Assembly (NCBI GenBank): GCA_964523905.1
Contig: CAZFYQ010000005.1
Span: 10,299-74,298 of the forward strand
Direction of reading: 5' to 3'
DNA length: 64,000 nucleotides
Source of the DNA: an uncultured Gammaproteobacteria bacterium
Lineage (GTDB): Bacteria; Patescibacteriota; Microgenomatia; Daviesbacterales; UBA10151
The notes under the pieces are model-generated. The model ran no database searches. It had not been told where the DNA came from and saw nothing but the letters and a program-made list of their open reading frames with translations. The position numbers and the translations under genes are program-made. This document shows positions 12,633-49,047 of the stretch, one piece after another (position 1 is the stretch's first letter; each line of letters opens with the position of its first letter).

Positions 12633-13526
12633 ATGGATGAGGGGGATATGGAACAAGAAAACTTGGTAGGAATACATCCTGATACATACCTTAGAGAACT
12701 TTACGGCAAAGCAGTTGATCCTGAAACCGGCGCTCACAATATGGGTATGGCCCATACCGCATTAGCAGAAGCCTACTTAGTAAAGCTCGAAGACTTTTGG
12801 AAAATACACCCTGAAGAAGCTCCTCAAATTGCCAAGGATCAGGTTAGCAAAGAATTGGAGGAATTGGTTAAACAAGGCAATGAGGAATCGTTTAAATTAG
12901 CCATATTTAAGGAGGGAGCCAGGGCCTTATTTGCGGAGTCAATTAAGGATGCTGATAACGTAATTATTGATACTGTTGGAAATGAGGAGCAGCAAGCACA
13001 GAAGCTTAAATATCTTAATCCGGCTGAACAGGCCACTCAAGAACTGATAGCCGGCGGGATGAGCCAAGAAGAGGCTACACTACTGGTACGTAAGAAGCTT
13101 GAGGTGCATATTCATGCCGCTAATAAACACCAGGTTATTGAGCAGGAAATCAAAATGTTTAAAGCATTAGGTTATCGAACTGTGTTACTAGCCGATGATA
13201 AAGGCGAAAATATTGCCAAATATCAGGAAATTGGCCGAGCCACCAATGATAATAACCCAGAACACCCATTTCAGGTGTTGGATTATTACGTTAATAACGA
13301 CCCTAAGCAAACAGAAGGAGATATTAATCATTTTGGACAGTTTATGCGGGATGAAATCAAAAGAACTCATGAACAAGGCGGTAAAGTAGCCGTGATCTGG
13401 GACTGGGATGATACGCTTTATGATGAGTCTAAGCGCGTCGCAATTGCCCACCAGATCACTGAAAGATTAATTAATCAAAGATACATCAAAATCGCCTCAG
13501 TTCCTTCCCTACCCGTAGCTGCTTAA
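12633..13526 (+). CDS. hypothetical protein with a C-terminal HAD-motif-I-like segment
   Basis: 297-aa ORF. Residues near the C-terminus read GGKVAVIWDWDDTLYD, which matches HAD motif I (hhhhDxDxTL). The rest has no recognisable family. Confidence 0.5.
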   Translation: MDEGDMEQENLVGIHPDTYLRELYGKAVDPETGAHNMGMAHTALAEAYLVKLEDFWKIHPEEAPQIAKDQVSKELEELVKQGNEESFKLAIFKEGARALFAESIKDADNVIIDTVGNEEQQAQKLKYLNPAEQATQELIAGGMSQEEATLLVRKKLEVHIHAANKHQVIEQEIKMFKALGYRTVLLADDKGENIAKYQEIGRATNDNNPEHPFQVLDYYVNNDPKQTEGDINHFGQFMRDEIKRTHEQGGKVAVIWDWDDTLYDESKRVAIAHQITERLINQRYIKIASVPSLPVAA

Positions 13527-13603
13527 TTTTTCTTAATATAACTGCTATAGTGAAATTGTGGCAGAAGCAACATCAACAGGCTAAGCATAACTAGCTAGCC
13601 AAC

Positions 13604-14323
13604 CTAGGGATGATAAGTTACTTTACGCTGGATGTCTGTAGAATTACCGGCTGCATCAGTGGCCTGGATATCAACCGTATTATCTCCTTCATTAATATCA
13701 ATGGTGGTAGAAAAACCACCATCACTACCAAGCACTACTTGGCTACCATTTACTAAGACTTGGATTCCTGGTTCGGTTTTTCCCGAAACCTGAACCTTTT
13801 TATCACCACCCTGGATAGTTTTATTATCTTCCGGTGAATCCACTGATAAATCCGGTTTTTGGTTATCATAAGTAACAGCATATGTTTTGGAAGGTAAACT
13901 GAGCTGGTTTTTATCATCAACAGTTTTAGCGAAAATATTATTAGTCCCTAAACTTAAAGAGATATCATTAAAAATAAACGAGCCGTCATCTCCGGCTTTT
14001 TCTGTGCCTTTTAGGTCATCATCAATATATAAATTAACTTTAGAATCCGCGGTGGCATAGCCGGAAATAGTAATCTGAGCTGTATTTGTAGCCTCAAAAG
14101 GAATACTTAAAATTGGTGGAGCTAAGGTCGGATTTTCCGCCGCTGATTGGACAGGAGCTGATTTGTGTCCAAAGTTTTTAAAAAAACCTACTCCGTTAAT
14201 TAAAAAGGGTAATACCCAGGTAAAAGCCACATATAATAAGACCAGAATTATTACAATGGTAGCAATAAAATTATAACGGGTTTTACGAGCCAATCTTCTG
14301 TTTGAACGCGTCTGATAAGCCAT
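13604..14323 (-). CDS. hypothetical membrane-anchored extracellular protein (Ig/Big-like beta-rich)
   Basis: Basic N-terminus plus a TM helix. The rest is Thr/Ser/Asp/Gly-rich with repeated VxxGxxD patterns. Confidence 0.5.
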   Translation of the reverse strand: MAYQTRSNRRLARKTRYNFIATIVIILVLLYVAFTWVLPFLINGVGFFKNFGHKSAPVQSAAENPTLAPPILSIPFEATNTAQITISGYATADSKVNLYIDDDLKGTEKAGDDGSFIFNDISLSLGTNNIFAKTVDDKNQLSLPSKTYAVTYDNQKPDLSVDSPEDNKTIQGGDKKVQVSGKTEPGIQVLVNGSQVVLGSDGGFSTTIDINEGDNTVDIQATDAAGNSTDIQRKVTYHP

Positions 14324-14506
14324 GCTTTGTTGTCACATCAAACCTATTCCTGTGACAAGAAATTGTTTTTGATACCTCGCAGCTCCTTTTCTGTGGGGTA
14401 TTTCAATACATTATATCCTAGTAGTAAAATAGATGTCGCTAGTTTACTTCTGGTGATTAGCGAGAAGCGGTGGTAATTTCCGACAAAAGCTAGACAATTT
14501 GCCGGA

Positions 14507-14657
14507 CCTGCCAAAATATAGAATTTTTGGCAGGCAGTGGTAGAATGCCTCCTTCCTCCACTAAAAGCCCGCCCATGGCGGGACATTTTAGTGGACCCAC
14601 CAAAATACCTGCCCGCAATTGCTATGCGTTGCAGGCGGGCGAAGTTTTTGGTGGGCA
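14507..14657. repeat. three consecutive long palindromes of form X-AAAA...GC-rich inner stem...TTTT-X'
   Basis: CCTGCCAAAA-tatagaat-TTTTTGGCAGG; CCACTAAAA-gcccgcc-cat-ggcggga-c-ATTTTAGTGG; CCCACCAAAA-...cctgcccgcaattgc...gcaggcgggcg...-TTTTTGGTGGG. Each outer arm pair is an exact reverse complement. Confidence 0.6.
14535..14556 (+). pseudogene. tRNA-Gly fragment (D-loop to anticodon loop), 21/22 nt identical to the intact tRNA-Gly 390 nt downstream
   Basis: cagtggtagaatgcctccttcc versus cagtggtagtatgcctccttcc in the tRNA at 14945-15016. No acceptor or T-arm is present. Confidence 0.55.
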
Positions 14658-14675
14658 AGGTGATAAGCTAAAAAT

Positions 14676-14954
14676 ATGATGTATTTTACTTATGTACTTT
14701 TGTGCGAAAATAGCAAAACTGGTAAAAAGAATTTTTATATTGGTTGGACAGAAAATCTCGAAGAGCGCTTAGAAGATCATCGATCAAAAAGCACGCCAAC
14801 TACAAAACAATTTGATAAAATAGCGCTGGTTTATTATGAAGCAAGTTTATCTAAAACAGATGCTATCAGCAGAGAGAGGCAGCTCAAGACAGGTTTTGGT
14901 AGAGGCTATATTAAGCGAAGAATCGAAAGTTATTTAAAAGATTTGCGGGTGTAG
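14676..14954 (+). CDS. GIY-YIG nuclease family protein (small, UPF0213/YhbQ-like)
   Basis: FYTYVLLCENSKTGKKNFYIGWTENLEERLEDH carries the GIY-YIG motifs (YVL...YIG...R..EH). The ORF's last 10 nt, including the stop, lie inside the tRNA-Gly 5' end. Confidence 0.8.
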   Translation: MMYFTYVLLCENSKTGKKNFYIGWTENLEERLEDHRSKSTPTTKQFDKIALVYYEASLSKTDAISRERQLKTGFGRGYIKRRIESYLKDLRV

Positions 14955-15016
14955 TACAGTGGTAGTATGCCTCCTTCCCAAGGAGGAGATCGCCGGTTCG
15001 AGCCCGGTCACCCGCT
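14945..15016 (+). tRNA. tRNA-Gly (anticodon CCC)
   Basis: GCGGGTG-TA-GTAC-AGTGGTA-GTAT-G-CCTCC-TTCCCAA-GGAGG-AGAT-CGCCG-GTTCGAG-CCCGG(T)-CACCCGC. Anticodon loop TTCCCAA gives CCC. Confidence 0.85.
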
Positions 15017-15030
15017 CTAAAGCCTATAGT

Positions 15031-15059
15031 TTGACAAGGAACGAGCTATTTAGTATAAT
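15031..15059 (+). promoter_or_regulatory. consensus sigma70-like promoter TTGACA-N17-TATAAT, 6 nt upstream of the 15066 ATG
   Basis: ttgaca (15031-15036), 17-nt spacer, tataat (15054-15059). Confidence 0.45.
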
Positions 15060-15065
15060 CTCTCC

Positions 15066-15860
15066 ATGACAAAAGAAGGATTTGAGCCTATATTTCATGG
15101 AAAAATGGAAGCTGTCGCGCAACTTTCTGATCTGGAATTCCAGGAATATGCCCTTGAGAAGAGTCTCTTACTCCCTAGTGCATTAAGGGAAAAAGCAGCA
15201 GCATTTATCCATAACCTAGGTTTGGGTTTACTAGTTTTACCATCCAGGGTGATTTACATTCCAATATCACACGGCCCATTAAATTCACCTGATGAGCATA
15301 AAACTAAAATTGCAGTAGCTAAAGTTTTGGGCAGAACCGTCGGAAATAGCTTGATTGCGAATGGAGAATCCGTAAGTAAAGTACAAAGCCAGCAAGGTAT
15401 TAGAAGAAGTCATCTACGTTTTTTTAGAGAAATGACTAAATGGGGGTTAACTACTAATATCAAAAGTCAACAAAAAACTTTAAGCGGCTTTGAGATGGCT
15501 ATTACTGAATATTTGGCAGAACATCAACACATAAAAGGTGTTGGGGTTGATTCTTTTGATGGAAATATTGTGAGTACTGCAGTCATGAGCCAAGCTTTAG
15601 AATCCGACAGATTTAATATGGAACAAAATTTGGACTTAATTGCTACCTTTGCTGCTGAAGCGAGAACGCGCAATGCGTTAAATAGAGCCACAGTTTATTT
15701 AGATACAAACCAAGAGCTTATTTTTTTCCAGGGATCACTACATCAAAATGGTGTTACTGAGTGGTGTAAGAGGCATACTGTACCATACCAGATACTTACA
15801 CCTGAAACAGAAGAGGTAGAGGATTCATCAATAATACCAGTTGAAAAGCCGGTAGTTTAG
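15066..15860 (+). CDS. hypothetical protein
   Basis: 264-aa ORF directly after tRNA-Gly, carrying the consensus promoter above. No recognisable family. Confidence 0.5.
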   Translation: MTKEGFEPIFHGKMEAVAQLSDLEFQEYALEKSLLLPSALREKAAAFIHNLGLGLLVLPSRVIYIPISHGPLNSPDEHKTKIAVAKVLGRTVGNSLIANGESVSKVQSQQGIRRSHLRFFREMTKWGLTTNIKSQQKTLSGFEMAITEYLAEHQHIKGVGVDSFDGNIVSTAVMSQALESDRFNMEQNLDLIATFAAEARTRNALNRATVYLDTNQELIFFQGSLHQNGVTEWCKRHTVPYQILTPETEEVEDSSIIPVEKPVV

Positions 15861-15864
15861 GTTT

Positions 15865-16920
15865 TTAAGAAACCCAGTAGCCGTTGGTAAATAATATGGT
15901 AAATGCTGACAGAAGCATTAAACTGATCATCTGATAAAAGAAATTTATTTTCTCGTTTTTGATTTGGGCCAGCAGGATAAAAATTGGAAAGACCGGTAAG
16001 ATAAACCGTGGCATTGATATCAAAGAAGTTGTCAGAAGTGGAATAAGCAGGGTTCCTAAACTATAAATACTTAAAAATCCCGGCAAAAAGCGAAAACTGC
16101 GAATGGCAAATCCCAGCCCAAAAATTGCAAAAAGCAGATCCAGTAAAACATTAAAATCAATGTTAACTCCGCTACTGGTTAAGCTTTTAATACTGTCCCA
16201 AAAGCTAAGACCCGGAATAGTTAAGGCTCTTTGCCAATGCTGTTCAGCAGTAAAAAAATAAAACGGGTCCCCTGTTTGATGAAATAAATAAACACAGTAA
16301 ATTACCAGCCCGATTGGCGATAGCAATACTACCCAATTTTTGCGATTAACTCCGGTTATTAAAACTTCCACAATCAAACTAATTGCTACAATAATTCCGA
16401 CCAATCTGGTAGCAGAAGCTAAGGCAGCAAAAATAGTAGCCCAACCAAATTTTTTATTTTGCCAAAAAGAAAAGGTTAAAACTGCCAACAAAAAAAATAA
16501 GCCCTCAGAATATGCAGTTAAAAAGAAAAAAGAAGTTGGAAAAAAAAGCAATGCCAGTATAGTTTTCTCGGCAATTTTTTTGTCAAACAATTTATTAACT
16601 AAACCGTATAAAAAATGCAATCCCAGAAAAAAAGATCCTCCGCTAATTAAAATTGCTGACAATAGATAATTATTTGTTACTAATGATAAGAATCTGATTA
16701 ACAAAGGATACAAAGGAAAAAAAGCATACTGAAAATTCTGTGAATAACCATTTTTTGCTATCCCTAAAAAATGGCCGCCGTCCCAATTTCCTAGATTGGT
16801 TAAAAAGTCTGTAGAAAATTTACCGGAATGAGGAAATTGCATAAACCCAAAATACGAGATAAAAAAAATCGATATTGCCCATATGCAAAAATAGAAGGTG
16901 ATACTAGAATATAATTTCAT
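15865..16920 (-). CDS. polytopic membrane protein, GT-C-like (PIG-V/DUF2029-type mannosyltransferase-like)
   Basis: At least 9 TM helices. The N-terminal region WDGGHFLGIAKNGY...FFPLYPLLIR resembles GT-C mannosyltransferase family proteins. Start is ambiguous: ATG at 16918-16920 or GTG/ATG at 16951-16953. Confidence 0.5.
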   Translation of the reverse strand: MKLYSSITFYFCIWAISIFFISYFGFMQFPHSGKFSTDFLTNLGNWDGGHFLGIAKNGYSQNFQYAFFPLYPLLIRFLSLVTNNYLLSAILISGGSFFLGLHFLYGLVNKLFDKKIAEKTILALLFFPTSFFFLTAYSEGLFFLLAVLTFSFWQNKKFGWATIFAALASATRLVGIIVAISLIVEVLITGVNRKNWVVLLSPIGLVIYCVYLFHQTGDPFYFFTAEQHWQRALTIPGLSFWDSIKSLTSSGVNIDFNVLLDLLFAIFGLGFAIRSFRFLPGFLSIYSLGTLLIPLLTTSLISMPRFILPVFPIFILLAQIKNEKINFFYQMISLMLLSAFTILFTNGYWVS

Positions 16921-20334: not shown

Positions 20335-20781
20335 ATGGCTGCAACTCCAGAAACATATCAAGAAACACGTGCACATGATTTGGGCTTCAAGGATGAAAAG
20401 GGACAGCCGGTGCTGGGCGTGGGTAAAAGATATACAGAAGATAGTCTTTATCGTTTTATGTATTTGGCTGAAGAGGCTCTCAAACCCGCAAGAATCGTAG
20501 TTACCCTAGGTCTCAAAGAAATAGACACCCCACATGGTGAAGATAAATTACAGTTTACTACTATTACTAAAATTGAGGGCATTTCAATAGAAGAAGCGGC
20601 TTCAAGATTAATGGTGCTAAGAGAAAGTGGACCAAGTTGGGCATTTAAACCAATTCGAAGGACTGGTGACCAAATTGATTATGCGTCTACTACAATTGGT
20701 CCCAATGATACATTAGCTCTATTTAACTTCGATACTGAAGAATTTACACACCTTGTGCCAGCAGCAACAACTCTAAAATAG
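20335..20781 (+). CDS. hypothetical protein
   Basis: 148-aa ORF. GC is noticeably higher than its neighbours. A REP-like element follows immediately. Confidence 0.45.
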   Translation: MAATPETYQETRAHDLGFKDEKGQPVLGVGKRYTEDSLYRFMYLAEEALKPARIVVTLGLKEIDTPHGEDKLQFTTITKIEGISIEEAASRLMVLRESGPSWAFKPIRRTGDQIDYASTTIGPNDTLALFNFDTEEFTHLVPAATTLK

Positions 20782-20820
20782 CTTCCAATCCCAGGGGTTG
20801 AATACGTTCAAACCTCAGGA
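20780..20820 (+). repeat. REP-like 41-nt element, copy A
   Basis: agcttccaatcccaggggttgaatacgttcaaacctcagga, with central palindrome TTGAA-TACG-TTCAA. It is 40/41 identical to copy C. Confidence 0.65.
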
Positions 20821-21343: not shown

Positions 21344-21384
21344 AGCTTCCAACCCCGGGTGTTGAATACGTTCAAACCCCAGGA
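21344..21384 (+). repeat. REP-like 41-nt element, copy B
   Basis: agcttccaaccccgggtgttgaatacgttcaaaccccagga. It is 37/41 identical to copy A and sits 2 nt from the tRNA-Val 3' end. Confidence 0.65.
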
Positions 21385-21386
21385 TG

Positions 21387-21458
21387 TGGATACTGTAGGG
21401 ATTGGACCTACGACCTCCTCGATGTGAACGAGGCGCTCTACCACTGAGCTAAGTATCC
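21387..21458 (-). tRNA. tRNA-Val (anticodon CAC)
   Basis: Reverse complement gives GGATACT-TA-GCTC-AGTGGTA-GAGC-G-CCTCG-TTCACAT-CGAGG-AGGTC-GTAGG-TCCAATC-CCTAC-AGTATCC-A. Confidence 0.85.
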
Positions 21459-40762: not shown

Positions 40763-40793
40763 TTTTCGCGCCAATAAGTGGCTAACCTAATAA

Positions 40794-40835
40794 TTTATTC
40801 TGTGGGGGCGATTTTGTAGTAGTTAAATAGTTGTC
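40794..40835 (+). repeat. 42-nt direct repeat copy 1: duplicate of the ftsI 3' terminus (copy 2 at 42574-42615 is the actual ftsI 3' end)
   Basis: tttattctgtgggggcgattttgtagtagttaaatagttgtc versus tttattctgtgggggcgattttgtagtagttaaataattgtc, 41/42 identical. Copy 2 encodes ...QLFNYYKIAPTE* on the minus strand. Confidence 0.75.
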
Positions 40836-40876
40836 AGCTTCCAACCCCAGGGGTTGAATACGTTCAAACCTCAGGA
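40836..40876 (+). repeat. REP-like 41-nt element, copy C, 20 nt downstream of the transposase stop
   Basis: agcttccaaccccaggggttgaatacgttcaaacctcagga. Confidence 0.65.
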
Positions 40877-41679: not shown

Positions 41680-42573
41680 ATGATTGACAATTTAGCAGAC
41701 CTTCCAAGAACTGAAAGAGACGGTATCTTTATTGATTACACAATCAGTGATCAAAAAGTAGTAACTCTAGTAAGAAGCTCTATAAATGAAACCGTTATGC
41801 ACGGGTATAACCAACTCCGAGATTGGGAACCTGAAGATAGAATAGAATCAAATTGTCCTTTATATCGTGTAGTAAATGCAGAGCAATCAACAGGTAGTTT
41901 AGACCAAATGATCCGCGTTGGTACGGAATCACAGAGAATTGCACTAGCTGTCTTAGAATCTTATGGACTTAATTTAGATTCACCTGATAATCTAAGCGAT
42001 TACAATGAGGCCAGAGGTCGAGAAAAATTGACTTTTCGCTCTCAATTAGTTGTGGGATTATCTTTTACTCGTCTAGCATTCTACGAAAATCACCCACCAA
42101 CTGCAAAATATGCAGAATGGATGGCTAATTTCTGGGTGCCATTGAGCGACACTGAAACTAAGAAGAGCACCGACGAAAAAGCATATCAAACTCTGCACCA
42201 GATTGCCTCCATTGTTCCTCCTGAGCTAATACAAATGGCTAATGAAGCTGATTTAGCTTTACCTGAAGGACTTCTTAAACATAGGTTCGGTCCTGATTTA
42301 AGCAATGACGAAAGAATTCAATTTGCCAAGTTCCTTTTTGATAGATATCTTTGGTGGGAAGACTCTAGAGGCTCTAGTGAAAGAAAAAGAATTTTTATCA
42401 AAGAAATAGGTATTCCAGCAGCAATAACCGGTAATATCCCCCAAGATCGAAAAAAAGATGAATTAATCAGCAGATTTGGTGGACTAATTGAGGTAGCAAA
42501 AATGTTTAATACACATTTTATTATATTTAGAGAGCGTCACGGATATTCTGTTTCTGAGAATATTTCTACCTAA
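41680..42573 (+). CDS. hypothetical protein (cargo of the transposase island)
   Basis: 297-aa ORF divergent from the transposase. Its stop is 1 nt from the ftsI stop on the opposite strand. No recognisable family. Confidence 0.5.
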   Translation: MIDNLADLPRTERDGIFIDYTISDQKVVTLVRSSINETVMHGYNQLRDWEPEDRIESNCPLYRVVNAEQSTGSLDQMIRVGTESQRIALAVLESYGLNLDSPDNLSDYNEARGREKLTFRSQLVVGLSFTRLAFYENHPPTAKYAEWMANFWVPLSDTETKKSTDEKAYQTLHQIASIVPPELIQMANEADLALPEGLLKHRFGPDLSNDERIQFAKFLFDRYLWWEDSRGSSERKRIFIKEIGIPAAITGNIPQDRKKDELISRFGGLIEVAKMFNTHFIIFRERHGYSVSENIST

Positions 42574-42574
42574 T

Positions 42575-44284
42575 TTATTCTGTGGGGGCGATTTTGTAGT
42601 AGTTAAATAATTGTCTGGCGATTTCAAAGAAGGTTGGAGCGGCTGTGTCAGCTCCAAAGATTGAGGCTGTGGGCTGATCATAGCGAACTAGGATGACAAA
42701 TTTCGGATCATCAGCCGGGGCAAATCCCACAAATGAGGCAATGGTTTTAGTGGGATCATAATGGCCAGCCACTGGAATTTGCGCAGTCCCAGTTTTTCCG
42801 GCAATCTTAAAGTTTCCTACTCCACCATGTGTTTTATACCAACTAGCTTCTCCCTTATCAACTGCTTGCACCATCATTTCTGTGACCACTTTGGCAGTGT
42901 CTGGAGTGACCACTGAGCGGATTACCTTGGGTTTAATTACAAAAGTACTACCATCGCCTTTGATTTCTTTAACAATATGCGGCTCCATTAAATTACCGCC
43001 ATTGGCAAGCGTGGATATCGCGGTAACCATTTGGATCGGAGTAACGGCAATTCCCTGGCCAAAAGTAGCAGTGGCTAAGTCAATTTCATGCCAATCTGCT
43101 TTGGGTCGAATACTGGTATCAGCCCCGTCTTGCAAATCAATATTAGAGGGTTGGCCAAAACCATAATTTTGAATATAACTATATAATTTATCCACACCCA
43201 GTTTTTTGCCGGTAAACACCATTCCGGTGTTATCCGAATGAATAATTACATCAGTCATCGTAGTATCTGGGAAATATTTATTATCCCAGGTTCGGATATC
43301 ATAATCAGCCACACGGACCGGTCCGGCACAATTATCACAAATAGTATCTGGAGTGACTAATTTCTCATTTAATGCCGCCGCCATCACCAGTACCTTAAAA
43401 GTAGAACCAGGCTCATAAGTATCTGCAACTACAGAATCTTTAAAATATTCTTTGGGATATTCAGTATAATTTCCAGGATCATAGTTAGGATAGGCTGCCA
43501 AAGCCAAAACTGCCCCGGTTTTAGGATTCATTACCACAGCTGAGGCTGATTTTGCTCCATATTTTTCAATACCAGCTTTTAAATTCTGCTCAACAATAAA
43601 CTGCACAGAGCGGTCAATATTAAGCTGTAAATCTTTTCCGTTTTTAGCATCGTTACTTAAGAAATTGCCAATTAAAATCGGTAACCCAGAGGCATCAATC
43701 TCATGCCTAAGCAGTCCCGAGCTGCCCTTAAGCTCGCCGTCATAGTACCCTTCCACTCCAAAATAACCCTTGCTTACGCTTTTGGCATCTGCCCCGACAA
43801 ACCCTAATATATGAGCTGAAGAAGATCCTTCCGGATAAAATCTACTGCTGCCTTGTTCAAAACCAATGCCTGGCAGTTTTAGAACTTCAATGGCTTTTTT
43901 CTGATCCGGAGTAATTTGTCTCATCAATACCACCCAGAATAGATCTTGAGACAATTTATTAATTAAGTCCTTGGCGAGACTATCCTGATCCTGATCCGCA
44001 GTAGCCAGTAGTTTAGCCAAAGCATAACCGGTATTAACGGTTTGTGCTTTAGTTAATACTTTTGGCTGGCCAAAAAGTAAATAGGAGGGGTTGGAAGATG
44101 CCAAAATAGAACCATCACTAAAATAAATCCGGCCTCTTAAAGCCTCTACTTTGGTGTCCGAAAAATGTTGCCCTTCGGCCTGAACCTGCAAAAAATCAGC
44201 ATTAACAATTTGCCAAAAATATAATCTGGCTAATATAGCAAGAAAAAAGACTAGAAAAAACGCTTTAATCCAAAATATCCGCAT
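42575..44284 (-). CDS. ftsI: peptidoglycan D,D-transpeptidase FtsI / PBP2-like class B penicillin-binding protein
   Basis: SxxK (GSTFKVLVMAAAL), SxN (HSDNTG) and KTG (AGKTGTAQ) motifs, plus an N-terminal TM anchor. Confidence 0.9.
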   Translation of the reverse strand: MRIFWIKAFFLVFFLAILARLYFWQIVNADFLQVQAEGQHFSDTKVEALRGRIYFSDGSILASSNPSYLLFGQPKVLTKAQTVNTGYALAKLLATADQDQDSLAKDLINKLSQDLFWVVLMRQITPDQKKAIEVLKLPGIGFEQGSSRFYPEGSSSAHILGFVGADAKSVSKGYFGVEGYYDGELKGSSGLLRHEIDASGLPILIGNFLSNDAKNGKDLQLNIDRSVQFIVEQNLKAGIEKYGAKSASAVVMNPKTGAVLALAAYPNYDPGNYTEYPKEYFKDSVVADTYEPGSTFKVLVMAAALNEKLVTPDTICDNCAGPVRVADYDIRTWDNKYFPDTTMTDVIIHSDNTGMVFTGKKLGVDKLYSYIQNYGFGQPSNIDLQDGADTSIRPKADWHEIDLATATFGQGIAVTPIQMVTAISTLANGGNLMEPHIVKEIKGDGSTFVIKPKVIRSVVTPDTAKVVTEMMVQAVDKGEASWYKTHGGVGNFKIAGKTGTAQIPVAGHYDPTKTIASFVGFAPADDPKFVILVRYDQPTASIFGADTAAPTFFEIARQLFNYYKIAPTE

Positions 44285-48981: not shown

Positions 48982-49047
48982 GACTATATCACGAAGTCAT
49001 ACAGGAAGCGAAGCGACTATATCACGAAGTCATACAGGAAGCGAAGC
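48982..49047. repeat. perfect tandem direct repeat, 2 x 33 nt, plus a 9-nt third partial unit
   Basis: gactatatcacgaagtcatacaggaagcgaagc occurs at 48982-49014 and 49015-49047, followed by gactagatc. It lies between the recO start and the stop of the DUF4012 gene. Confidence 0.85.

Follow-up and report, generated by a model that had tools for sequence, protein, structure and literature searches.

How does a tRNA gene come to share its first nucleotides with the end of a nuclease gene, when a piece of the same tRNA lies repeated on the far side of that nuclease gene? The question is raised by a locus in a 64-kb stretch of a Patescibacteria contig of Microgenomates type (the window, by which we mean the whole stretch analysed), where an open reading frame (ORF) for a small GIY-YIG nuclease runs into a tRNA-Gly(CCC) gene. 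We found that the locus is one example of a cassette with a constant order, namely a tRNA 5' part, a double-hairpin module (HP) placed in a loop of that tRNA, about 17 nt, a 91-aa GIY-YIG ORF and an intact tRNA, which is present in about 100 Patescibacteria genomes. We consider it probable, at roughly 0.6, that this cassette is a mobile selfish element in the tRNA genes of Patescibacteria (the candidate phyla radiation, CPR) that keeps a working copy of the tRNA. We hold any particular repair route for its spread with considerably less confidence. The parts of the locus, in window coordinates, are the following.

14467-14478, plus strand: segment 1 of pseudo-tRNA 'a', GCGGTGGTAATT, tRNA positions 1-12, matching the real tRNA at 8 of 12 positions
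14479-14534, unstranded: HP_D, a double-hairpin module in the D-arm after position 12 of the pseudo-tRNA, recognised as inverted repeat I17 and by its fold
14535-14556, plus strand: segment 2 of pseudo-tRNA 'a', the 22-mer seen in the preliminary description of the locus, tRNA positions 13-34, from the D-loop to the second anticodon base
14557-14655, unstranded: HP_AC, an intact double-hairpin module between anticodon bases 2 and 3, inverted repeats I18 and I4
14656-14663, plus strand: segment 3 of pseudo-tRNA 'a', CAAGGTGA, tRNA positions 35-42, identical to the real tRNA at 6 of 8 positions
14676-14954, plus strand: GIY-YIG nuclease ORF, 92 aa when counted from 14676, Pfam PF01541
14945-15017, plus strand: intact tRNA-Gly(CCC), copy 'b', by ARAGORN, with an Rfam tRNA match of 66 bits at 14945-15016

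The preliminary description, made from the letters alone, had the ORF terminating 10 nt inside the tRNA gene, and this was borne out. The TAG stop at 14952-14954 is U8-A9-G10 of the tRNA, and both ARAGORN and Rfam place the tRNA 5' end at 14945, upstream of 14954. The last ORF codons and the stop are encoded by the first 10 nt of copy 'b'. That the ORF encodes a GIY-YIG protein was upheld by Pfam PF01541, which matched residues 2-76 with 47.5 bits against a curated cut-off of 22.6 (E=2.3e-12). The proposed repeat between the D-loop and the anticodon loop was also recovered, since 14535-14556 and 14957-14978 are identical at 21 of 22 positions and correspond to tRNA positions 13-34. A chance match had been called very unlikely, and 100 dinucleotide shuffles of the window gave no match to the 22-mer with three or fewer mismatches. 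The two copies are spaced 422 bp apart with the GIY-YIG ORF as the sole ORF in between, and a combined ORF and Pfam scan found no recombinase encoded in this interval. Rfam found four tRNAs and nothing else across the whole window; at a permissive threshold, the region 13500-16000 held no credible family besides tRNA, the other matches having E values of 3-8, far below gathering thresholds.

The ORF likely starts at the second ATG, at 14679, which would give 91 aa, because a protein of this length, beginning MY(F/Y)TYVL, is what gene callers predict and what all homologues show. The 91-aa form is on record, while an exact look-up of the 92-aa form found no entry because the databases use the second ATG. 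The window DNA is also on record in run SRR9179560.

Comparison with related loci shows that 14467-14663 corresponds to tRNA-Gly positions 1-42, as a pseudo-copy in three pieces. The duplicated fragment of the preliminary description is real, but it is not a lone 22-mer; it is the middle of a whole tRNA 5' part that has been broken up. Without a 3' half, the upstream copy is dead. Of the two modules that interrupt it, HP_D consists of a decayed hairpin (14479-14506) and an intact one, CCTGCCAAAA..TTTTGGCAGG, at 14507-14534. HP_AC consists of hairpin 1 (14557-14595) and hairpin 2 (14596-14655), and the palindrome nested in hairpin 2 at 14608-14639, CCTGCCCGCA..TGCAGGCGGG, recurs in loci L019 and L139 of the survey described below. 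The sequence GCGGTGGTA(G/A)T(T/A) followed by a hairpin module is found in L035 and L003 as well, and L035 carries a homologous TCCGACAAAAG... module at the position of HP_D. Indeed the window, L003 and L035 have this double-HP dead half in common despite differing live tRNAs and neighbours. The G+C-rich stretch 14495-14675 folds at -82 kcal/mol, with a z score of about -7, on either strand, and no Rfam family matched the hairpin stretch between the 22-mer and the ORF. Segment 3 resembles a Shine-Dalgarno sequence (AAGGTGA) 12-15 nt 5' of the ATG. No further HP was found elsewhere in the 64-kb window. We conclude that the window holds an old copy of the cassette, whose dead half has decayed and has acquired a second HP.

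The arrangement was surveyed in one genome per GTDB species, 185,579 species in all. Relatives of the protein led to 104 loci, of which 80 were kept; 77 of these have a complete ORF, and 73 were used for the counts on the junction and the half-tRNA. The adjacency of nuclease and tRNA holds well beyond the window, with 70 of the 77 complete ORFs having a same-strand tRNA that abuts or overlaps the ORF 3' end. The partner is mostly tRNA-Gly(CCC), sometimes Gly(UCC/GCC), and in more distant relatives tRNA-Val, Ile, Thr, Asn or Ala. Of 73 loci, 57 have the ORF stop within the tRNA, 42 of them with the exact 10-nt overlap in which the stop is U8-A9-G10; the remaining in-tRNA stops use other frames and fall at positions 12-23. 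In 44 of 73 loci the ORF is preceded, at 60-160 nt, by a 5' part of the same tRNA, with no fewer than 33 of 34 positions identical in 13 of them. The half-tRNA matches its local tRNA closely, often at 34/34, although the tRNA sequences vary among genomes. In nearly all loci an HP follows directly after the half-tRNA. In the relatives 0-10 nt of tRNA (median 4) resume after the HP, and the distance from the HP end to the ATG has a median of 17 nt.

TATAAT-like boxes at -21 to -9 were found before 17 of 43 dead halves compared with 5 of 64 live tRNAs. The idea that the last codons of the ORF conceal a promoter of the live tRNA was dropped, as TATAAT-like boxes were not enriched there. In L014 and L008 another ORF 3' end stands before the dead half, and these sequence remnants indicate tandem copies of the cassette.

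What kind of structure is the HP? Its consensus reads (T/C)CCGCCAAAAGC-loop-GCATTTTGGCGG(A/G), then CCCGCCnAAATGC-loop-GCTTTTGGCGGG, over a length of 55-85 nt. Because hairpin 2 is the reverse complement of hairpin 1, the module looks alike on both strands. A bulged A in hairpin 1 and a bulged T in hairpin 2 are conserved, and the loops often contain nested mini-palindromes. The stems differ in sequence from locus to locus, and the changes are fully compensated on the opposite arm; those of the window include TCCACT/AGTGGA and CCCACC/GGTGGG. Only about 1% of some 1,390 predicted HP pairs are G.U pairs in either orientation, and the sense and antisense strands fold equally well. An RNA under structural selection was rejected on these two grounds. 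This near absence of G.U pairs and the strand-symmetric folding are the signature of a DNA palindrome, which may reflect a cruciform, hairpins of single-stranded DNA or a copying mechanism.

We found HPs at a small number of sites within tRNA sequences. The anticodon loop after the second anticodon base holds 30 copies and D-arm positions 12-22 hold 18. One locus, its identical sequence recovered three times (L009, L126, L129), has the HP in the T-loop, and another, recovered twice in identical form (L110, L137), has it at the 7/8 junction. These sites are unpaired in the cloverleaf, save for copies after position 12 at the edge of the D-stem. Three loci of Shapirobacteria type, L034 and L053 (both about 1353-1790) and L061 (1342-1823), contain a complete tRNA-Pro(UGG) whose 3' end is immediately followed by an HP. 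The ORFs of L034 and L053 have stop codons of their own with no tRNA behind them, a variant without the half-tRNA duplication.

A pattern search of metagenomes with the HP centre alone returned true HPs only beside this ORF or tRNA fragments. The same pattern gave 26 matches in viral contigs, none with the two-hairpin structure, and all were judged to be chance. Five of the viral contigs (L085, L089, L092, L095, L098) carry one recurring G+C-rich phage sequence with CCCGCCCAAATACGC...GCGCTTTTGGCGGGC, a single HP-like partial hairpin in apparent coding DNA, which was also judged to be chance. The short and regular stretch of tRNA that resumes on the inner side of the HP was considered as the basal stem of a three-way junction, an explanation that was dropped since 0-10 nt (median 4) are left and pairing is poor. 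Its short and regular length may instead come from a cut made at a fixed distance from a bound HP.

Many Microgenomates loci share the gene order LemA, PolX, tRNA-Asp, LysM gene, cassette, tRNA-Gly. Since the 264-aa ORF downstream of the window's tRNA has no homologue but itself, we found the corresponding sites by way of the LysM gene, taking its homologues from long contigs of 8 genomes that were picked without knowledge of whether they had the cassette. The site was empty in 7 of 8 (L145, L147, L148, L150/151, L153, L154 and L155) and occupied in L156. At all seven empty sites a TATAAT-type box precedes a plain tRNA-Gly(CCC), and both the ORF and the HP are missing. Presence and absence at one genomic site, as expected of a homing gene, were thus found, among distant relatives rather than within one population.

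The tRNA copies around the cassette are mosaics of alleles. In L011 the dead half equals the working tRNA of the empty site L148 at 34/34 positions, while its live tRNA is a separate allele with covariation between its 5' and 3' halves. L029 has a dead 5' part upstream and a dead 3' part downstream of its live tRNA; these two form perfect pairs with one another, and both are unlike the live copy that they enclose. L156 also has a dead 3' part downstream, which is of the local Levybacteria type. Repeated invasions are suggested because the upstream and downstream copies are often different alleles. The cassette is also rare (104 loci in 185,579 species) and yet spread across many CPR classes, with members 55-70% identical. 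This rarity, spread and identity, together with the empty sites and the allele mosaics, favours horizontal mobility over ancient vertical descent. At two sites we noted resolvase-type serine recombinase genes just downstream of tRNA-Gly(CCC), in L011 (1864-3255, minus strand; occupied) and L145 (4196-4693; empty). This tRNA gene may serve as attachment site for a separate integrative element too.

We identified 532 homologues of the protein, nearly all of about 91 aa and from Patescibacteria, with the best ones in Levy-, Gottesman-, Woese- and Curtissbacteria. The wider family comprises 597 clusters at 50% clustering (E<=1e-10). Among 42 aligned members Y6, Y21, G23, R31, E55, D62, R66 and E67 are invariant and H35 is conserved in at least 90%, so that the catalytic set of GIY-YIG nucleases (Y6, Y21, R31, E55/E67) is among the conserved residues. 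An invariant LKTGFGRGY motif, in its extended form KTGFGRGY(I/L)KRR, leads into a basic C-terminal helix, and mean column identity across the alignment is 68%. The AlphaFold (AF2) model has a mean predicted local distance difference test score (pLDDT) of 91.5 and the order beta-beta-alpha-beta-alpha-alpha. Its top matches in the PDB are all GIY-YIG proteins (1zg2, Slx1, HIGLE, UvrC and I-TevI). Sequence, conserved residues and predicted fold agree that the protein is a member of the GIY-YIG superfamily.

Within that superfamily the nearest structure is the UPF0213 protein BH0048 (1zg2; profile E=4e-4), followed by Slx1 and At-HIGLE (template-modelling scores, TM, of 0.57-0.64), and UvrC and I-TevI rank below these three. 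The preliminary description had pointed to kinship with homing endonucleases; the superfamily stands, but the closest relatives belong to the structure-specific UPF0213/Slx1 branch and not to the I-TevI-type homing enzymes. The similarity is marginal, at 20-28% identity, and unlike UPF0213, Slx1 and HIGLE the cassette nuclease has its own invariant C-terminal motif and helix; it has no Slx4-type partner and no RING domain. Slx1 and HIGLE cut branched DNA, an activity that would suit hairpin or cruciform substrates. By this analogy, the presence of an Slx1/HIGLE relative beside a palindrome able to form a cruciform is suggestive. PHROGs gave no match to the protein, and PADLOC gave only partial, domain-level matches, the best with E=1.6e-6 over about 55 of 301 profile positions. 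In the literature on UPF0213 we found no tRNA linkage.

How might such a cassette persist and spread in a gene that the cell needs? What we observed directly is the architecture, the fact that it recurs at genes for tRNA-Gly(CCC/UCC/GCC), Val, Ile, Thr and Asn, the sites found empty, the mosaics of alleles and the solo HPs in dead copies. The preliminary description had proposed a selfish insertion that disrupted and partly duplicated a tRNA-Gly locus. The comparative data agree with insertion and partial duplication; the functional tRNA is not disrupted, as an intact copy is always kept. We propose that the cassette, sitting between the tRNA promoter and the working tRNA, is transcribed together with the tRNA. 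The ORF and the live tRNA are probably one transcript, because the dead half occupies the tRNA start position and TATAAT-like boxes are found there. RNase P would free the tRNA from this co-transcript by 5' processing. Since the stop codon lies inside the tRNA, processing of the tRNA and complete translation of the ORF would exclude each other on any one transcript, and the in-tRNA stop could act as a brake that keeps the nuclease level low.

In the same proposal the nuclease would cut cassette-free tRNA genes, or hairpin or cruciform DNA at tRNA loops. The break would be repaired from an occupied allele through two homology arms, the dead 5' part on one side and the live tRNA's 3' part on the other, and the DNA between the arms (the HP, the ORF and a new tRNA 5' part) would be copied in. 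The essential tRNA could survive without a self-splicing intron, since a complete tRNA 5' part would come in with the cassette or be regenerated by it. Hops between isoacceptors, and rarely to other tRNAs, would be explained because spread needs only tRNA homology. The direct repeats, of up to 35 nt, would allow scar-free loss, leaving empty sites, and tandem amplification (L014, L016, L005). The HP may also insert alone into tRNA-like DNA, and the window's dead half would have two HPs because only HP insertions in dead copies survive.

A more specific version of such a mobile element, which we regard as possible but put at well short of even odds, is that the element is guided by structure. 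The Slx1-like nuclease and the cruciform-forming double hairpin would recognise folded, single-stranded loops of tRNA genes and not their sequence. The targets would be the D loop, anticodon loop, T loop, 7/8 junction and 3' end, with the tRNA regenerated from the carried half-gene. If true, this would be a way of entering essential RNA genes without a ribozyme intron, an integrase or a transposase.

Several points weigh against a selfish, homing-like cassette. Its actual mobility and mechanism are what we infer from comparing sequences, and the occupied/empty contrast spans genomes whose LysM proteins are about 50% identical, a closely related occupied/empty pair not having been found among the sampled loci. 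ORF identity correlates only weakly with the identity of either tRNA copy (rho 0.16-0.44), so that these correlations do not single out one copy as the one that travels with the ORF. The protein is a bare catalytic domain with no obvious domain for reading sequence. In every locus the live tRNA is itself an intact candidate target, only the upstream copy being split by an HP, and how the host allele escapes self-cleavage is unexplained by the model. The window's upstream half has no convincing promoter, which is in keeping with an old, decaying copy.

Simple homing also does not predict a second, mirror-image type of unit on the 3' side of the live tRNA in many loci, which consists of a full tRNA, 0-20 nt, 5-12 nt of tRNA left flank, an HP and a tRNA 3' part. 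Such units were found in L001, L009, L011, L014 (two in tandem), L027, L029, L067, L079, L112 and L122. Such a unit may represent a sister cassette without an ORF in which the 3' part of the tRNA is duplicated, what is left of older residents, or the right end of a complete element. L027 argues against a single answer, as its two HPs occupy different loops, an observation that also led us to drop the idea that the two HPs are the two ends of one insertion. A simple target-site duplication was likewise rejected, as in L029 the inner flanks by the HP are of the live-tRNA type and not copies of the outer flanks.

The solo HPs raise the question whether the HP, and not the cassette, is the real mobile element, similar to a miniature inverted-repeat transposable element (MITE) that enters tRNA-like loops, with the half-tRNAs as rescue duplications and the GIY-YIG protein as a passenger or host-derived factor. 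HPs without an ORF of their own (the second HP of the window, L003, L035, L014, the 3'-side units and the ORF-less L112) would fit, as would the D-arm positions that shift nucleotide by nucleotide and the precedent of G+C-rich double-hairpin elements, thought to be mobile, in fungal mitochondria (PMC10085805, PMC4618339). However, in the window and metagenome searches the HP always accompanied this ORF family or its tRNA fragments, and in nearly every locus the ORF begins close by, at a median distance of 17 nt. The ORF-tRNA junction is moreover nucleotide-exact at Gly, Val, Ile and Thr, which is not expected from random duplication and decay, and we therefore think an autonomous HP unlikely. 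We are slightly more doubtful still of a vertically inherited housekeeping operon with a cellular role linked to tRNA-Gly, in which the half-tRNA and hairpins would form a regulatory leader that mimics tRNA. The protein is strongly conserved (the 68% mean column identity), the arrangement forces co-transcription with the tRNA, and the tRNA fragment after the HP resembles a ribosome-binding site. Against such an operon are HP stems that are purely Watson-Crick, with about 1% G.U on both strands, unlike RNA-level selection, as well as the 7 of 8 syntenic loci that are empty, the mere 104 loci in 185,579 species, the changes in partner tRNA identity, and dead halves that decay, as in the window, and carry foreign alleles.

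The remaining two explanations treat the insert as a known kind of tRNA insertion. The preliminary description had offered an integration scar as its alternative, which would here be the attL and attR sites left at tRNA-Gly by an integrase. The insert is bounded by direct repeats of the tRNA, its junction is in the anticodon loop (or T loop), an intact tRNA is regenerated, all as at classical tRNA attachment (att) sites, and serine recombinase genes do lie near the tRNA in L011 and L145. We nevertheless find a scar very improbable: the repeats enclose 422 bp without an integrase, the 5' part and not the 3' part is duplicated, about 100 genomes have the same content, and L145 has the recombinase gene but no cassette. 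Least credible of all is that the HP, or the HP with the ORF, is an intron removed from the tRNA-Gly RNA, even though the anticodon-loop site is that of bacterial group I tRNA introns, in which nuclease ORFs are common. No intron or ribozyme family of Rfam gave a credible match at E<=10, the working tRNA copy is uninterrupted and never has an HP, all HP-bearing tRNA copies are truncated on one side and stand beside an intact copy, and the HP itself is a DNA-type palindrome of 55-85 nt.

We compared the cassette with known systems and found that, by analogy, it would work most like a free-standing homing endonuclease gene. The Seg family of T4-like phages consists of free-standing GIY-YIG homing genes, with SegB located in a tRNA gene cluster (PMC2988022, PMC13096335). 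Both Seg genes and the cassette have an intron-less GIY-YIG gene against or between tRNA genes, and both are presumed to spread through a break in the cassette-free allele followed by recombinational copying together with the flanks. Seg proteins, however, have 200 or more aa with separate DNA-binding domains, whereas the cassette protein is a catalytic domain alone, 91 aa long and of the UPF0213/Slx1 branch, and matches no PHROG family. Seg genes belong to phages, while the cassette is cellular and its HP was absent from the viral contigs searched. Unlike Seg genes, the cassette also has a half-tRNA duplicate, palindromic hairpins and an ORF stop provided by the tRNA.

A parallel for the displaced gene part is atp6/ORF360 of Allomyces, where, as Paquin and colleagues are said to have described in 1994, a mobile endonuclease ORF replaces part of a host gene and leaves the displaced piece as a remnant. 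That system would resemble the cassette in that a replacement copy keeps the gene working and a dead partial duplicate adjoins it. The target there would be the 3' end of a protein-coding gene, unlike the 5' part of a bacterial chromosomal tRNA gene here. The double-hairpin elements (DHEs) of fungal mitochondria are two adjacent, potentially mobile stem-loops found mostly in intergenic and variable rRNA regions (PMC10085805, PMC4618339). They are like the HP in shape, being short, G+C-rich pairs of stem-loops in an A+T-rich genome. The HP, unlike DHEs, was found only in tRNA-like loops and beside one nuclease family, so that its copies are not dispersed, and it has dyad symmetry. The repetitive extragenic palindromic (REP) elements with their transposases (RAYT), the IS200/IS605 elements and integron attC sites offer a looser analogy, as they may be likened to the HP in combining imperfect palindromes that have a conserved unpaired base with one enzyme gene. 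Their enzymes are of the HUH or tyrosine type and act through covalent intermediates; that of the cassette is a GIY-YIG protein. We know of no GIY-YIG nuclease that joins DNA.

Searches of the literature for GIY-YIG with tRNA, Patescibacteria, tRNA-Gly, UPF0213 and CPR tRNA introns gave no description of the cassette, and the CPR intron literature found concerns rRNA genes. Its target, the 5' part of a chromosomal tRNA, and the rescue of that tRNA by duplicating half of the gene rather than by splicing are unprecedented. So too are the dyad-symmetric hairpins in tRNA loops and the ORF stop codon borrowed from the tRNA.

Other features of the window were noted in passing. A perfect TTGACA-17-TATAAT promoter lies 14 nt past the tRNA-Gly (region 15031-15860), ahead of the 264-aa ORF at 15066-15860, for which neither Pfam/NCBIfam nor a search of 5.8 billion proteins gave any match but the protein itself. 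A 41-nt hairpin-forming repeat occurs in three copies (20780-20820, 21344-21384 and 40836-40876) that are 90-98% identical. Of these, the second lies directly against the 3' end of tRNA-Val(CAC) (21386-21458, minus strand); its best fold, at -20 kcal/mol, is on the minus strand. This repeat looks like a terminator or REP-type element and is unrelated to the HP in sequence. A 45-nt direct repeat (40791-40835 and 42571-42615; 98% identical) has its first copy directly before the third 41-nt repeat, and a 33-nt unit, GACTATATCACGAAGTCATACAGGAAGCGAAGC, is present in exact tandem duplication at 48982-49047.

The cassette matters for annotation, as its half-tRNAs and hairpins mislead tRNA finders and gene callers. 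In L067, ARAGORN reports a 94-nt 'tRNA-Arg(TCG)' at 648-741 that is really hairpin 2 of an HP joined to the 3' part of a dead tRNA-Val. Gene callers also extend the nuclease ORF through the HP, giving versions of 98-134 aa. For the biology of these bacteria, the cassette would mean that an essential RNA gene can be colonised by duplicating half of the gene, within about 420 bp, compared with the known route by way of self-splicing introns. It would tie expression of the tRNA to a parasite, and excision of the tRNA would leave an mRNA without a stop codon. It would give a first biological context for a UPF0213/Slx1-like branch of GIY-YIG proteins, in the form of a small nuclease that may read the shape of DNA, such as hairpins and cruciforms. 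Finally, the cassette would mark horizontal exchange between CPR lineages.

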